Both the position numbers and the translations under genes were made by a program. Below are positions 19,206 through 41,842 of a stretch of DNA of 64,000 bases, in pieces (the first letter of the stretch is position 1; every line of letters starts with the position of its first letter). This DNA comes from Escherichia phage vB-Eco-KMB23: sequence record OR525702.1. One strand, 5' to 3'. The notes beneath the pieces are model-generated. The model worked only from the letters and a program-made list of their open reading frames with translations, did not search any database and had not been told where the DNA came from.

Positions 19206-19233
19206 TTTCTGTTCCTCCGTAGTTGATAGTTGT

Positions 19234-19263
19234 ATAGTACCACAGAGGAACAGTCTTGTAAAC
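19234..19263 (-). promoter_or_regulatory. T4-type early promoter
   Basis: Minus strand GTTTAC ... TACTAT; GGAGG RBS and ATG follow. Confidence 0.5.
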
Positions 19264-20726: not shown

Positions 20727-20750
20727 AAAAAAGGGAGCCCGAAGGCTCCC
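20727..20750 (-). terminator. Rho-independent terminator after NTase gene
   Basis: Minus strand GGGAGCCTTCGGGCTCCC followed by TTTTTT. Confidence 0.7.
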
Positions 20751-20752
20751 TA

Positions 20753-24268: not shown

Positions 24269-24298
24269 ATAGTATCACAGCTCAAACGGAAAGTAAAC
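24269..24298 (-). promoter_or_regulatory. T4-type early promoter
   Basis: Minus strand GTTTAC ... TACTAT; downstream GAGGAG RBS. Confidence 0.5.
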
Positions 24299-24308
24299 CG
24301 GTAAAATG

Positions 24309-24330
24309 AAAAAAGTCTCCCGAAGGAGAC
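24309..24330 (-). terminator. Rho-independent terminator
   Basis: Minus strand GTCTCCTTCGGGAGAC followed by TTTTTT. Confidence 0.7.
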
Positions 24331-24335
24331 TAATG

Positions 24336-28624: not shown

Positions 28625-28651
28625 GTTATTCTCCTCTTAACTGATAGAAAA

Positions 28652-28681
28652 ATTATACCACAGTCAAGAGGAAAAGTAAAC
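28652..28681 (-). promoter_or_regulatory. T4-type early promoter upstream of regB
   Basis: Minus strand GTTTAC, 18-nt spacer, TATAAT. Confidence 0.55.
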
Positions 28682-38790: not shown

Positions 38791-38836
38791 TCAGTGCGGT
38801 ATGAGTTAATAATAACAAATAATTCTTAAAGCATAT

Positions 38837-39121
38837 TTACCATTTATGATACGTATTTACGATGCATTCAAGACTTAAAGGATTCTTGAAAATATCATAT
38901 TCAAGAGGACCTTTTTCTGTTTCAATAAAGAAATCAAAATTTACTGTATTAAATTTACGGTCTTCCTTCACTAATTTAACCTGAGAAGATGAACGGTCAA
39001 TGTAAACCTTTTCAACTTCAAAACATGTTAAAATGCCATAATCATCAATCAAGGCTTTAGCTGCTTCTTGATCATATTTATATCCATTTTCAATGGACGA
39101 TACTTTAGCATAAAGAATCAT
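38837..39121 (-). CDS. Hypothetical protein, 94 aa
   Basis: ORF track. Confidence 0.5.
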   Translation of the reverse strand: MILYAKVSSIENGYKYDQEAAKALIDDYGILTCFEVEKVYIDRSSSQVKLVKEDRKFNTVNFDFFIETEKGPLEYDIFKNPLSLECIVNTYHKW

Positions 39122-39123
39122 TG

Positions 39124-39534
39124 TCAGCCTCTATCAACGATAGCATGAGTATGGGCATTTACGATTTGCCACCAGTCGAAACGATTGAAACCATAATCTG
39201 GTTTATTTTCATTTTCTTTAATGATATCACGCAGCTTATCTTCTGTTTCAGCATACGCAATTAAATCATCATATCCACCACAAGGGTAATAATTATCACC
39301 TGCGAATAAAAGAAAATTTACCTTAGATGGATTTACATAATAATGGTCTTTAGGATATTTAGTTCCTCTCCAATCAGTTACTTCAACATAACGGTAAGAA
39401 AATCCATTTTTACTTTCAATCCAACTCCACGCTTCAAAAGGAGTATTAAAAACTTTATCAGGTATTAAATTACCTTCAAAATGAGAAGGATTTGCATAAT
39501 CCCCAGCATAAACATAATATTCGTTAATACTCAT
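39124..39534 (-). CDS. Hypothetical protein, 136 aa
   Basis: ORF track. Confidence 0.55.
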   Translation of the reverse strand: MSINEYYVYAGDYANPSHFEGNLIPDKVFNTPFEAWSWIESKNGFSYRYVEVTDWRGTKYPKDHYYVNPSKVNFLLFAGDNYYPCGGYDDLIAYAETEDKLRDIIKENENKPDYGFNRFDWWQIVNAHTHAIVDRG

Positions 39535-39720
39535 TTATTCACCTTTAGAAATTTTATCCATAACGATAGCAATTAAACCAATTAAAAATGCTACTACAAG
39601 TGAAAACGCATTTTCTGCTGTAGTTAATAATCCGCATATAAATCCAACAAACATTGAAAAACTAAAAGCAGAAGCAGAAATTGCAATAGCAACATTTCGA
39701 ATTAATTCACAACGTTTCAT
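39535..39720 (-). CDS. Small membrane protein, 61 aa
   Basis: Two hydrophobic helices; GAGGAG RBS and early promoter upstream. Confidence 0.5.
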   Translation of the reverse strand: MKRCELIRNVAIAISASAFSFSMFVGFICGLLTTAENAFSLVVAFLIGLIAIVMDKISKGE

Positions 39721-39748
39721 TTTATTCTCCTCGGTAGTTGATAGGGTA

Positions 39749-39778
39749 ATAGTATCACTACCCTATCTAAAAGTAAAC
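39749..39778 (-). promoter_or_regulatory. T4-type early promoter with -10 centred in a 9-bp inverted repeat
   Basis: GTTTAC -35; -10 core atagtatcac flanked by GATAGGGTA / TACCCTATC (39740-39748, 39759-39767). Confidence 0.5.
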
Positions 39779-40012
39779 TTATTTTTTACGAAAAATTGAT
39801 TTATTTTCTGCTGCCCATTTTTCAATAACTGCAGCAGGACCAGTAACAACAATTTTATCACCGTAATCTTCTGCGGCGAGTTGACCGAAATTATCTAATG
39901 CATCACGAAGAACTCCATGAGGCATTTCACCCATTTTATCTTTCTTGCCGGTGTAAATAAACTCAACTTTTACATCAGAAGATTCAGCGATAAACTCTTT
40001 GAAAGTTTTCAT
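39779..40012 (-). CDS. Internal-protein-like (capsid-targeting sequence) protein, about 78 aa
   Basis: Start placed at MKTFKEFIAESS (capsid-targeting consensus) rather than the track's upstream extension; own early promoter at about 40047-40076. Confidence 0.6.
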   Translation of the reverse strand: MKTFKEFIAESSDVKVEFIYTGKKDKMGEMPHGVLRDALDNFGQLAAEDYGDKIVVTGPAAVIEKWAAENKSIFRKK

Positions 40013-40046
40013 TTTGATTTCCATTTGGTTTTGTTTTGATAGAGTA

Positions 40047-40076
40047 ATAGTATCACTACTAAAACCCTGTGTAAAC
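40047..40076 (-). promoter_or_regulatory. T4-type early promoter upstream of internal-protein-like gene
   Basis: Minus strand ttcacaaagttGTTTACac ... TACTAT; upstream 30 nt duplicated at 40402-40431. Confidence 0.5.
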
Positions 40077-40088
40077 AACTTTGTGAAA

Positions 40089-40346
40089 TTATTTTAAATC
40101 TTCTAATCGTTTCTTCATCTTAGAACCATTTTTAGCAATTTCTCCTGCATCTGAGCATAATGCTAAAAGTGCTTTAACTTTAGTTTGGTCTCCTTTAAAA
40201 GATGAAGGATCGACTGCAGCAGCAAGTTCTTTAATACGAGAGAAAAGACGCTCAGCTTCAGCTAAAGCCATTCCAAGCTTTACTTCCATACCGTGGGAAG
40301 ATTCGGTGATAGTAGTTTTTGTAGCAAACTCTTTGAAAGTTTTCAT
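40089..40346 (-). CDS. Internal protein I-like (capsid-targeted, injected), 85 aa
   Basis: N-terminus MKTFKEFATKTTITES with I-x-E cleavage motif; adjacent to 57B as ipI is in T4; own early promoter. Confidence 0.65.
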   Translation of the reverse strand: MKTFKEFATKTTITESSHGMEVKLGMALAEAERLFSRIKELAAAVDPSSFKGDQTKVKALLALCSDAGEIAKNGSKMKKRLEDLK

Positions 40347-40377
40347 TTTTATTTTCCTAATTAATTTTGATGAGGTA

Positions 40378-40407
40378 ATAGTATCACTACCTCATCAGTA
40401 TGTAAAC
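40378..40407 (-). promoter_or_regulatory. T4-type early promoter upstream of ipI-like gene, -10 centred in inverted repeat
   Basis: GTTTAC -35; -10 core atagtatcac flanked by GATGAGGTA / TACCTCATC (40369-40377, 40388-40396). Confidence 0.5.
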
Positions 40408-40419
40408 AACTTTGTGAAA

Positions 40420-41116
<697 letters not shown>

Positions 41117-41117
<1 letters not shown>

Positions 41118-41842
41118 TATAGTACCTTTAGTGTATTTTTAATTTTAGAAAAAAGTTCTTCAAGAGAACCATCGTTTGTAATTACTAAATCACCATCACG
41201 AATTGGCAATCCAGCTTCTGTAATATGTGTATCATTGGATTTTTGACCAGGACGAACTACATGAATTACTGTAGCACCCATCGCCCTAGCCGCATCCATT
41301 TCATGATCTTGACGAGTATCAGGAACGATATAATAATCATAACCTGAGTTAAATTTATCAAGATAATCTAAAGCAAATAATTTTACCCAATACATGCGGT
41401 CGAAGTTATTAACAATCAAATCCGTACCTAGGGCTTGCATCAGACGACGGACTGACCATTGATCTTCAATATTATTTATAACGTCAGCAATCTTATTAAA
41501 TGCTACGAAAGTAACTGATTCTTTTCCTTCGTCATCAAAAACAAACACACCTTTAATTGGGCTTTTACTATTAAGATAGCAAAATGCTTGTTCCATAATC
41601 GTGATTACTTCTAATTTAGTCAGATTTAAATTAGTCTCACGATCATAGTCAATTCCTTCAAACTCTTTACGAGTTAAGCAAGGATAGTCAGTGTTTGCTG
41701 CAAATACTCCCCATGCATAAGCCAATGCATCCTTAATAGGACCAGCAAGTTGGTATTTAACTGCAGAATAATTATTCATGATAAAATCTGCAGTAGTATC
41801 TTTTCCGCTACGCTTTACACCACTTAAAAAGATTAGTTTCAT
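41117..41842 (-). CDS. 1: Deoxynucleoside monophosphate kinase
   Basis: 241 aa; P-loop MKLIFLSGVKRSGKDTTADFI. Confidence 0.9.

Follow-up and report, generated by a model that had tools for sequence, protein, structure and literature searches.

Stem-loops around the -10 element of T4-type early promoters at the internal-protein locus of Escherichia phage vB-Eco-KMB23

The inverted repeats that surround the -10 element of early promoters in Escherichia phage vB-Eco-KMB23 and its T-even relatives are real and under selection, and it is the complementarity of the arms that is conserved, not their sequence. The selected entity is very probably a hairpin of the sense strand that acts on read-through RNA. 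We further consider it probable that the sites are composite T4-type early promoters with an embedded stem-loop, similar to the promoter-early stem-loops (PeSLs) of T4-like phages, in which the hairpin would insulate neighbouring early units from each other.

Results

The window, i.e. the whole stretch of 64,000 nucleotides analysed here (OR525702.1), represents a T6/PST-like Tequatrovirus, of which PST is the nearest relative with 97.8-98.7% identity. The genes of the internal-protein (IP) locus are located on its minus strand, with the following features:

40420..40875, minus strand: gene 57B, the upstream gene; stop codon 12 nt before the GTTTAC of the ip5 promoter
40365..40435, minus strand: copy 3 of an intergenic cassette of about 71 nt (repeat family D1), 85% identical to copy 2
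40368..40407, minus strand: early promoter of ip5, downstream of 57B; -35 GTTTAC 40407-40402, GTGA-TACTAT 40387-40378; hairpin 5' arm TGATGAGGTA (plus 40388-40397) in the spacer, 3' arm TACCTCATCA (plus 40368-40377) reaching about +3
40089..40346, minus strand: ip5, internal head protein Ip5; SD AGGAAA 40358-40353, beginning 10 nt past the hairpin (nine bases between)
40034..40104, minus strand: cassette copy 2 of about 71 nt (D1), the reference copy
40041..40076, minus strand: early promoter of ip6; -35 40076-40071, -10 TACTAT 40052-40047, core 40047-40056; hairpin outer pairing AGGGU 40068-40064 with ACUCU 40045-40041 (one G.U pair), inner pairing UAGUA 40061-40057 with UACUA 40052-40048, loop GUGA
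39779..40012, minus strand: ip6, internal head protein Ip6; an N-terminal leader repeat (D2) is common to ip6 and ip5
39736..39806, minus strand: cassette copy 1 of about 71 nt (D1)
39740..39778, minus strand: early promoter of trna.4; -35 GTTTAC 39778-39773, directly adjoining the ip6 stop codon, -10 TACTAT 39754-39749; hairpin GATAGGGTA (plus 39759-39767) with TACCCTATC (plus 39740-39748)
39535..39720, minus strand: trna.4, small membrane protein; SD GAGGAG 39732-39727, 8 nt past the hairpin

There are exactly four copies of the core ATAGTATCAC in the window, at 24269, 39749, 40047 and 40378. An earlier note on this DNA had described perfect inverted arms around two of these copies, and a repeat search confirmed both. 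The dyad of the trna.4 site consists of two arms of 9 nt, 100% complementary and 10 nt apart (GATAGGGTA at 39740-39748, TACCCTATC at 39759-39767), and that of the ip5 site, noted as 40369-40396, is one pair longer, with 10-nt arms (TGATGAGGTA at 40368-40377, TACCTCATCA at 40388-40397). Between the two dyads, two neighbouring bases of one arm differ (AG vs GA), and the opposite arm carries the complementary change (CT vs TC). The elements belong to the minus strand, where they form GTTTAC-N18-TACTAT promoters in which the core GTGATACTAT comprises the extended -10 and the -10. All three IP-locus sites have the form TTTACA-17-TACTAT with TG and an AT-rich stretch upstream, which supports their identity as early promoters, namely of ip5, ip6 and trna.4. 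The dyad overlaps the -10, with the loop formed by the extended -10/-10.

Folded as sense-strand RNA, the trna.4 site reaches -16.4 kcal/mol (z = -4.0) and the ip5 site -17.4 kcal/mol (z = -5.4), with 0 of 200 shuffles as good in either case; the stems at these two sites are 9-13 bp long. The third promoter, at about 40047, had been thought to lack the symmetry. It nevertheless forms an interrupted stem (sense -11.6 kcal/mol, z = -3.3; antisense -7.5 kcal/mol, z = -1.4), and its orthologues in T6 and T4 possess a perfect dyad. The sense strand folds better than the antisense strand by about 4 kcal/mol at all three sites.

Each cassette contains the end of the upstream gene, an AT-rich UP region, the -35, the spacer, the -10 and the start region. 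As the three cassettes are paralogous copies of family D1, the similarity of their cores is due to descent, and one may ask whether the dyads are chance palindromes in AT-rich DNA, or hitch-hike with a duplicated cassette while their pairing is not selected. We regard this as extremely improbable, because the z-scores of the two perfect dyads against shuffles are -4 to -5.4 and because hairpins are far too frequent among early promoters. In particular, a hairpin encloses the -10 at 69 of 175 early-promoter-like sites in T-even relatives (39%), as opposed to 14.5% of arm-swapped sites, and within the window folding energies of -11 kcal/mol or lower are reached by 8 of 17 GTTTAC-N18-TAnnnT sites, as opposed to 25 of 272 arm-swapped chimeras. 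Covariation, scored as a fixed-register pair count over 94 sites that were picked without regard to their arms, amounts to 0.278 and exceeds all 500 shuffles (0.192 +/- 0.015) as well as all slid registers (0.14-0.18). Stems were searched by MFE and by diagonal scans, and an unbiased scan yielded 119 perfect stems with 7 bp or more, of which 42 had their centre at +20 to +29 from GTTTAC, i.e. on the -10.

A further control for chance is provided by the 16-mer GTAGTGATACTATTAC, for which exact matches in IMG/VR are mostly unrelated coding sequence and useful for this purpose only. The stems flanking about 50 non-promoter occurrences in unrelated viral contigs measure only 3-6 bp, as compared with 7-11 bp in most of the copies at T-even promoters. 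The exceptions (the second copy of L016, L019 and L032) have 4-5 contiguous Watson-Crick pairs and represent a G.T-interrupted arm and two chimeric joins. The covariation of the arms that the earlier note had proposed is borne out by the early promoters aligned from the window and its relatives, and together with the arm-swap controls and the conservation at the locus (see below) it supports selection on the dyad.

The nature of the selected structure had been left between a hairpin and a binding site for a dimeric protein, and of these the hairpin is favoured. The non-Watson-Crick pairs, as read on the sense strand, comprise 13 of the G.T and one of the A.C type (binomial p = 0.002; as the analysed sites are related to each other, this and the other p-values given here overstate their independence). 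With a strand-neutral choice of sites, the sense strand folds better at 47 of 50 sites, with a mean difference of -3.3 kcal/mol. The arms, on the other hand, are unrelated between promoters (for examples ATAGGCTCAT, AGTTGACAAGG, CTGTTCCTCTGTGG and GGTGTAGGAGC, or AGGATGAT in Mosigvirus). We rejected an operator for a dimeric DNA-binding protein, as half-sites are not conserved across promoters or genera and the tolerance for G.T is strand-asymmetric; an operator in duplex DNA predicts neither unrelated arms nor a bias towards the sense strand.

Alternatively, the promoter itself might be the target of the dyad, which would serve either as a dimeric-protein operator for early shut-off or as a non-template hairpin that presents the -10 to sigma-70. 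The centre of the dyad coincides with the extended -10/-10, the shut-off mechanism of early promoters is only partly understood, and the sense strand is the non-template strand, so that the G.T bias would fit a hairpin in single-stranded DNA equally well. However, no arm sequence is shared between promoters, and consequently no single protein could read the arms; about 60% of the early promoters are devoid of a dyad; and the 5' arm (-26 to -17) remains duplex in the open complex according to the established geometry of sigma-70. An action on the promoter also gives no rationale for the adjoining upstream gene or for those hairpins that cover the SD. We consider it highly unlikely, and the same holds for the specific suggestion that a non-template hairpin offers the -10 as a single-stranded loop or forms a supercoil- or structure-dependent switch for early shut-off, which, if true, would make this a case of the host polymerase using a structured-DNA promoter.

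The sense-strand hairpin is well conserved at the IP locus. It is kept in 32 of 36 real intergenic promoters of 12 phages, so that the absence of symmetry from most early promoters of relatives, which the earlier note had named as evidence against its proposal, was not observed at this locus. The sequence of the ip5 promoter is identical at P(ipI) of T4 and in RB15, RB3 and CM8. The orthologue of the ip6 promoter forms a perfect 7-bp dyad (ATAGGGT/ACCCTAT) in T6, T4, SA20RB and CM8, and includes one G.U pair in RB15 (ATAGGGT/ATCCTAT). Relatives of the trna.4 promoter display G.U variants (GATGGGGTA) and an extended 11-bp form, and the arms of Mosigvirus at this locus differ from those found here. 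The RB15 sequence Z35082, which stems from the study of Repoila 1994, carries the same hairpins.

The IP gene content between the cassettes varies among phages, with ipI in T4, ip5 and ip6 in T6 and PST, ip5, 9, 7 and 8 in RB15, and other contents in RB3 and CM8. Between phages, the halves of the cassettes form mosaics, whose joins stay paired by means of G.U wobble. In some chimeric promoters (RB15, L019) the hairpin is lost yet the promoter persists, and the hairpin is therefore not essential at every site. This mosaicism raises the possibility that the dyad is primarily a recombination signal at the DNA level, i.e. a cruciform or a target of a structure- or site-specific enzyme that drives IP shuffling and the formation of mini-circles. 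The cassettes flank variable IP genes and are themselves mosaics joined in the shared core, they bound a tandem duplication in CM8, and PeSL-mediated exchanges and mini-circles were demonstrated in RB49/phi1, where one crossover was mapped to the loop (Arbiol 2010, PMC2839356). Against this, the homology of cassettes of about 70 nt suffices for recombination without any hairpin, and hairpins are equally common at promoters outside variable loci, such as that of regB. A sense-strand G.T bias is unexpected for a cruciform, which needs both strands, and the central spacer of 10 nt would disfavour extrusion. A primary role in recombination is thus improbable in our view, and we return to the hairpin in read-through RNA.

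The position of the hairpins relates them to the gene upstream. At the focal sites the stop codon precedes GTTTAC by 0-12 nt, the 5' arm starts 5-16 nt after the stop codon and the whole hairpin lies within about 45 nt of it, while the SD follows the stem at 8-10 nt and the ATG at 20-22 nt. Hairpin promoters in general are located at a median distance of 5 nt from the upstream stop codon, as opposed to 28 nt in hairpin-less ones (p = 0.002), and only 1 of 79 hairpin promoters, in contrast to 18 of 115 hairpin-less sites, has no end of an upstream ORF within 200 nt. Two hairpin-less promoters of the window have a canonical UUCG terminator just upstream instead. Over 185 sites, embedded hairpins and canonical upstream terminators show a non-significant trend to exclusivity (OR 0.57, p = 0.22).

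The hairpins share with intrinsic terminators their intergenic position just past a stop codon, and software has called the orthologous sites terminators: the SA20RB orthologue of the ip5 site is annotated as an overlapping promoter plus terminator, and in independent annotation a predicted terminator overlaps the early promoter at both orthologous sites. True terminators elsewhere in the window differ, however, in having UUCG loops and U-runs. The tails past the focal stems are AACUACCG and AAAUUAAU, none of the 73 hairpin sites has at least five T within 8 nt past the stem, and a consensus terminator scan of 38800-41200 found no terminator-like site. A canonical intrinsic terminator was therefore rejected for the focal sites and the 73 related hairpins, and efficient intrinsic termination is doubtful given the lack of a U-tract. 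A search of 39400-40700 against Rfam 15 assigned no family, as the two hits were at chance level (22.5 and 15.5 bits vs gathering scores of 55 and 50), and a literature search for 3'-end, Term-seq or cappable-seq data on T4 or T-even transcripts found none relevant. The SD lies within the 3' arm in 29 of 73 hairpin promoters, including those of regB and nrdC.8 in the window; at the focal sites of ip5 and trna.4, by contrast, it follows 8-10 nt past the end of the stem.

Discussion

The arrangement of the arms provides insight into the transcripts in which the hairpin may form. With the start site placed by sigma-70 geometry, the 5' arm is located in the spacer between -35 and -10 (about -26 to -17), the loop corresponds to the extended -10/-10 and the 3' arm extends from -6 to about +3. 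The start site thus lies downstream of the 5' arm, which rules out a hairpin in RNA begun at the promoter itself; most likely the hairpin forms only in read-through transcripts from the upstream gene. Self-initiated RNA would lack the 5' arm and be unstructured, while RNA reading through from 57B into ip5, or from ip6 into trna.4, would fold into a hairpin of 9-13 bp. What the hairpin does to this RNA is inferred, and which of attenuation, 3' protection, for instance after cuts by RegB or RNase E, and translational insulation dominates is much less certain. Most likely the hairpin attenuates or pauses read-through transcription and thereby insulates adjacent early transcription units, and in addition marks the 3' end of the upstream message and shields it as a 3'-proximal barrier. 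At trna.4, where GGAGAAUAAAA matches the consensus of strong RegB sites, such a barrier might act once RegB has cut at the GGAG that follows 8 nt downstream. In this way, each gene would be expressed mainly from its own promoter. The location inside the promoter is explained by the gap between stop codon and -35 (0-12 nt), which is too short for a separate structure. As a side effect, the shared cassettes of about 70 nt provide recombination points at which IP genes are shuffled, and joins within the common core create matched or mismatched pairs of arms.

A related explanation places the insulation at translation (and RegB): only self-initiated transcripts would be open to ribosomes, whereas read-through RNA would be structured at or near the ribosome-binding region. 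This is conceivable, as in all cases the 5' arm precedes the start site, the 3' arm includes the SD in a large subclass of promoters, the T4 genes e, soc, 49 and I-TevI offer an established precedent, and secondary structure is known to protect from RegB (PMC3014915). From the end of the focal stems, however, it is 8-10 nt to the SD and about 20 nt to the AUG. As the SD is not sequestered there, a translational effect would have to act via the standby region, and we regard translational insulation as a rather unlikely main function at these sites. It would extend the e/soc/49/I-TevI design to early promoters. Attenuation of read-through RNA or protection of its 3' end remains our preferred reading for ip5 and trna.4.

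Both the elements and this locus are already known (Repoila 1994, via Arbiol 2010; Arbiol 2010; Comeau 2014), and little is therefore added here as discovery. PeSLs were described from RB49/phi1 (Arbiol 2010, PMC2839356), and the catalogue of Comeau 2014 (PMC4122927) includes those of PST/T4 and nt-1/KVP40. PeSL-like elements at internal-protein loci of T-even phages go back to Repoila 1994 (EMBO J 13:4181), as summarised by Arbiol 2010 (PMC2839356). The quantitative points that this analysis contributes are the prevalence of about 40%, the centring on the -10, the sense-strand G.U signature, the link to adjoining upstream genes and the large subclass in which the SD is buried. They concern an arrangement of overlapping signals, in which the promoter of the next gene and the RNA structure of the previous transcript occupy the same 40 bp, and in which the cassette doubles as a joint for recombination, whereby injected anti-defence (internal) proteins are shuffled among T-even phages.

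Like PeSLs, the sites are composite cassettes of an AT-rich upstream region, an early promoter, a stem-loop, an SD and a start codon; PeSL stem-loops are often found between -35 and -10 or over the -10, with G-T pairs in their stems, and the repeated cassettes flank small variable genes and mark points of indels or replacements. All three sites have the early promoter with AT-rich upstream sequence, the stem-loop, the intergenic position and the repeated cassette at gene replacements, and all three fit the PST/T4 PeSL promoter consensus TTTACW-N17-TAYWAT as given by Comeau 2014 (PMC4122927). According to the legend in that study, however, the PST stem-loops are 'just upstream of the promoter', whereas the hairpins described here enclose the -10. 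The PeSLs of RB49 differ: their sigma-70 promoter is near consensus (TTGACA) and their stems are GC-rich (polyG/polyC), with termination shown for one of them, whereas the present sites have the T4 early consensus GTTTAC...TACTAT, AT-richer stems and no U-tract. Experimental demonstration of terminator activity and of mini-circles is confined to the RB49/phi1 elements (Arbiol 2010, PMC2839356); the sole terminator test concerned a GC-rich RB49 stem and not the AT-richer T-even stems.

A comparable design is known from the T4 genes e, soc, 49 and I-TevI, in which a promoter lies within a hairpin, and long read-through transcripts fold while short self-initiated ones do not (PMC3014915). The 5' strand of the helix is, by our reading, likewise encoded upstream of the start site of the internal promoter. 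These are late promoters, however, and their SD or AUG is sequestered by the 3' strand, unlike at the focal sites, where the SD lies beyond the stem. In the window, the promoters of regB and nrdC.8 match this design, but as early promoters.

Promoter dyads of the internal-protein locus

Over the 4-kb stretch around the dyads, identity to Yersinia phage PST and to phage T6 (Tequatrovirus) is 97-98%. The orthologous genes of T6 (trna.3, trna.4, Ip6, Ip5, 57B, 57A and gene 1) all lie on the minus strand, and dyads and promoters are therefore to be read on that strand, where the core atagtatcac becomes GTGATACTAT, a TG-extended -10 plus the -10 hexamer TACTAT. Three sites are T4-type early promoters, GTTTAC-N18-TACTAT:

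40368-40397 (dyad), minus strand, ip5 promoter, downstream of 57B
40047-40056 (core), minus strand, ip6 promoter, downstream of ip5
39740-39767 (dyad), minus strand, trna.4 promoter, downstream of ip6

A promoter-like GTTTAT-N18-TAAAAT at 39962 (minus strand), within the ip6 coding sequence, has no hairpin and recurs at the same place in PST and T6; it was taken as a chance match and left out of the locus counts.

The inverted repeats described in an earlier note were recovered with a repeat finder as a 9-nt dyad (39740-48/39759-67) and a 10-nt dyad (40368-77/40388-97), both 100% complementary with arms separated by the 10-nt core. The compensatory changes are likewise present: two neighbouring positions differ between the sites and the partner arms change complementarily. 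Sense-strand RNA folds at -16.4 kcal/mol (z = -4.0) and -17.4 kcal/mol (z = -5.4), with none of 200 shuffles as good. The dyads are real and non-random; chance, a weaker reading than either an RNA hairpin or a translational role, has a practically negligible probability. The third (ip6) promoter, which the earlier note described as lacking the symmetry, is not fully asymmetric: it forms an interrupted hairpin of 5 + 5 bp with one G.U pair and a GUGA loop (sense-strand energy -11.6 kcal/mol; z-scores -3.3 for sense and -1.4 for antisense). Its orthologues in T6, T4, SA20RB and CM8 carry a perfect ATAGGGT/ACCCTAT dyad; RB15 has this dyad with one pair changed to G.U.

Distribution among early promoters

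The pattern GTTTAC-N18-TAnnnT has 17 matches in the window, all on the minus strand, seven of which have strong hairpins that differ completely in their arms and enclose the -10:

35411, minus strand, arms ATAGGCTCAT/ATGAGCCTAT
23486, minus strand, arms AGTTGACAAGG.../...CTTGTCAACT
28681, minus strand, 3' arm over the Shine-Dalgarno sequence (SD)
19263, minus strand, 3' arm over the SD
31382, minus strand
two sites, minus strand, the trna.4 and ip5 promoters

Energies of -11 kcal/mol or better occur at 8/17 window sites versus 25/272 chimeras made by giving a promoter the 3' half of another. A scan of IMG/VR with GTTTAC-N14-GTGATACTAT, leaving the arms free, gave 112 loci. Across all T-even-like sequence retrieved, 175 unique sites resemble such promoters and have SD and ATG downstream; 69 of them have a -10-enclosing hairpin, compared with 14.5% of arm-swapped controls. 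When 94 unique sites are held in the register of the focal hairpins, 50.2% of cells are paired (shuffles 43.1 +/- 1.3; 0/500) and the covariation score is 0.278 (shuffles 0.192 +/- 0.015; 0/500), falling to 0.14-0.18 in registers slid by 1-3 nt. An unbiased stem search from -70 to +110 placed 42 of 119 perfect stems (>=7 bp) on the extended -10/-10, with centres 20-29 nt past the G of GTTTAC. The 16-mer GTAGTGATACTATTAC is flanked by stems of only 3-6 bp in unrelated viral contigs (about 50 occurrences); its T-even promoter copies mostly have 7-11 bp, apart from one in which G.T interrupts the stem and two chimeric joins.

In 12 phages, two of them Mosigvirus, the 57B-IP-trna.4 locus keeps the hairpin at 32/36 real intergenic promoters, in Mosigvirus from other arms (AGGATGAT/ATCATCCT; TAGGACTA/TAGTCCTA). 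Such hairpins are general, and at this locus the asymmetry of most early promoters in relatives, which the earlier note had named as the outcome against it, is therefore not what we find.

Strand of the fold

Internal mismatches in 43 unique stems, counted with an equal penalty for every non-Watson-Crick pair, comprise 13 G.T, one C.A and two others (binomial p = 0.002); G.T on the sense strand corresponds to a mismatched A.C on the opposite one. Among 50 sites picked strand-neutrally by a perfect Watson-Crick stem (>=7 bp), the sense strand folds better at 47 (mean difference -3.3 kcal/mol versus -1.0 at stemless sites). Wobble also keeps mosaic joins paired, as in PST, where GATGGGGTA pairs with TATCTCATC via two G.U pairs. 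On these grounds, a single-stranded structure of the sense strand is under selection, most simply as RNA, although formally also as non-template DNA. Of the two explanations originally offered, the hairpin is correct and the dimeric protein site is not: the strand asymmetry lends a duplex-DNA site no support, and it is independently ruled out by the unrelated arm sequences.

Position and possible function

The 5' arm begins directly past the -35, on average at position 8-10 from GTTTAC, and lies within the spacer, a part of the promoter that RNA polymerase leaves unread. For the 3' arm there are two classes: in one, including the focal sites, its end falls around the expected start site (positions 36-41), in the other over the SD (positions 48-56; 29/73 promoter hairpins in T-even relatives). 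With transcription probably starting about 7 nt past the -10, as sigma-70 geometry suggests, the promoter's own RNA would lack the 5' arm and only RNA from the upstream gene could fold. Direct action of the dyad within the promoter itself is very improbable, and weaker than readings through RNA folding or translation. Upstream stop codons adjoin hairpin promoters (median gap 5 nt versus 28 nt at hairpin-less ones, p = 0.002; 12 nt for 57B and 0 nt for ip6 at the focal sites), and no ORF ends in the 200 nt upstream at 1/79 hairpin promoters versus 18/115 hairpin-less ones.

We consider it probable that the RNA hairpin, confined to read-through transcripts, insulates neighbouring early units. 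It may do so by attenuation or pausing together with a barrier at the 3' end of the upstream message, and its place in the promoter spacer may reflect a lack of intergenic room. The trna.4 SD GGAGAAUAAAA (39721-39732, minus strand), 8 nt past the stem, agrees with the consensus published for strong RegB cleavage sites, GG*AGRAYARAA; a cut here would put the hairpin at the end of the ip6 message.

No U-tract follows the stem at any hairpin examined (the focal ones and 73 related), and the promoter hairpins are therefore not canonical intrinsic terminators; orthologous sites in SA20RB are annotated by prediction software as terminators overlapping early promoters. The mobD.5 and nrdC.10 promoters have no -10-centred hairpin, and a canonical UUCG-loop terminator with a U-run lies just upstream of their -35:

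about 24314-24331, minus strand, intrinsic terminator AGTCTCC-ttcg-GGAGACT + TTTTT, upstream of the mobD.5 promoter
about 20732-20751, minus strand, intrinsic terminator AGGGAGCC-ttcg-GGCTCCCT + TTTTTT, upstream of the nrdC.10 promoter

Across 185 sites, hairpin and upstream terminator did not exclude each other significantly (OR 0.57, p = 0.22).

The main rival, translational insulation of read-through RNA, has precedent in e, soc, 49 and I-TevI, whose design resembles that of the regB and nrdC.8 promoters. It is very plausible for this SD-covering class but not evident at the focal sites, for which we regard it as rather unlikely. The regB promoter (28630-28681, minus strand) forms a 15-bp hairpin, G.U allowed (TTTTCCTCTTGACTG/CAGTTAAGAGGAGAA, -20.9 to -21.6 kcal/mol). 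The 5' arm lies between -35 and -10, the 3' arm over the SD GGAG, at which RegB itself cleaves. In read-through RNA, GGAG would be concealed from ribosomes and RegB; in self-initiated RNA it would be exposed. At nrdC.8 (19210-19263, minus strand), a 15-bp stem (CTGTTCCTCTGTGGT/ACTACGGAGGAACAG, -19.6 to -22.1 kcal/mol) likewise surrounds the -10 and sequesters the SD GGAGG.

Relation to known elements

Arbiol et al. 2010 (PMC2839356) defined the PeSLs (promoter-early stem-loops) of RB49 and phi1 as cassettes of early promoter and stem-loop, the latter most often between -35 and -10 or overlapping the -10, marked G-T pairs in the stems, proposed and partly tested a terminator/attenuator role, and demonstrated recombination between cassettes. 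As summarised there, Repoila et al. 1994 described PeSL-like elements at two T-even IP (internal-protein) loci, T4 early promoters with weaker AT-rich stem-loops; by that summary, this is the same IP locus as that of our dyads. PeSLs were also catalogued in PST, the closest relative of the window, by Comeau et al. 2014 (PMC4122927). Given these descriptions, the dyads are a correct rediscovery of a known element and no new kind. Our analysis adds a prevalence estimate, the -10 centring in T-evens, the strand-asymmetry test, the association with abutting stop codons and the large SD-covering subclass.

Cassettes and recombination

The three promoter sites are copies of a cassette of about 71 nt (repeat finder). 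Across phages, cassettes are mosaics of a few 5' halves and a few 3' halves joined in the common core; arms match at most joins, and a few joins have broken hairpins (RB15 position 766, -3.6 kcal/mol; the relatives' sequences L019/L032, -7.0). The genes between cassettes are ipI in T4, ip5 and ip6 in T6, PST and the window, and ip5-9-7-8 in RB15. Shigella phage CM8 (MK962750.1, 71234-74368) has a tandem duplication of a truncated 57B together with ip5 and ipI, with the same promoter/hairpin cassettes at its bounds, a direct example of cassette-mediated rearrangement at the IP locus. That the dyad itself serves as a recombination signal is improbable, and weaker than the RNA-hairpin and translational readings.

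Positions 39689-39761 (73 nt: first codons of trna.4, SD, 3' arm and -10) match many Klebsiella T4-like phages at 93% identity, although these have nothing else of the 1.4-kb query; the segment looks like a conserved cassette end and possibly marks a recombination joint. A 29-nt direct repeat (39992-40020/40326-40354, 97% identical) spans the starts of ip6 and ip5 and codes for their common N-terminal leader MKTFKEF, which we take to be the conserved leader that targets internal proteins of T-even phages to the capsid.
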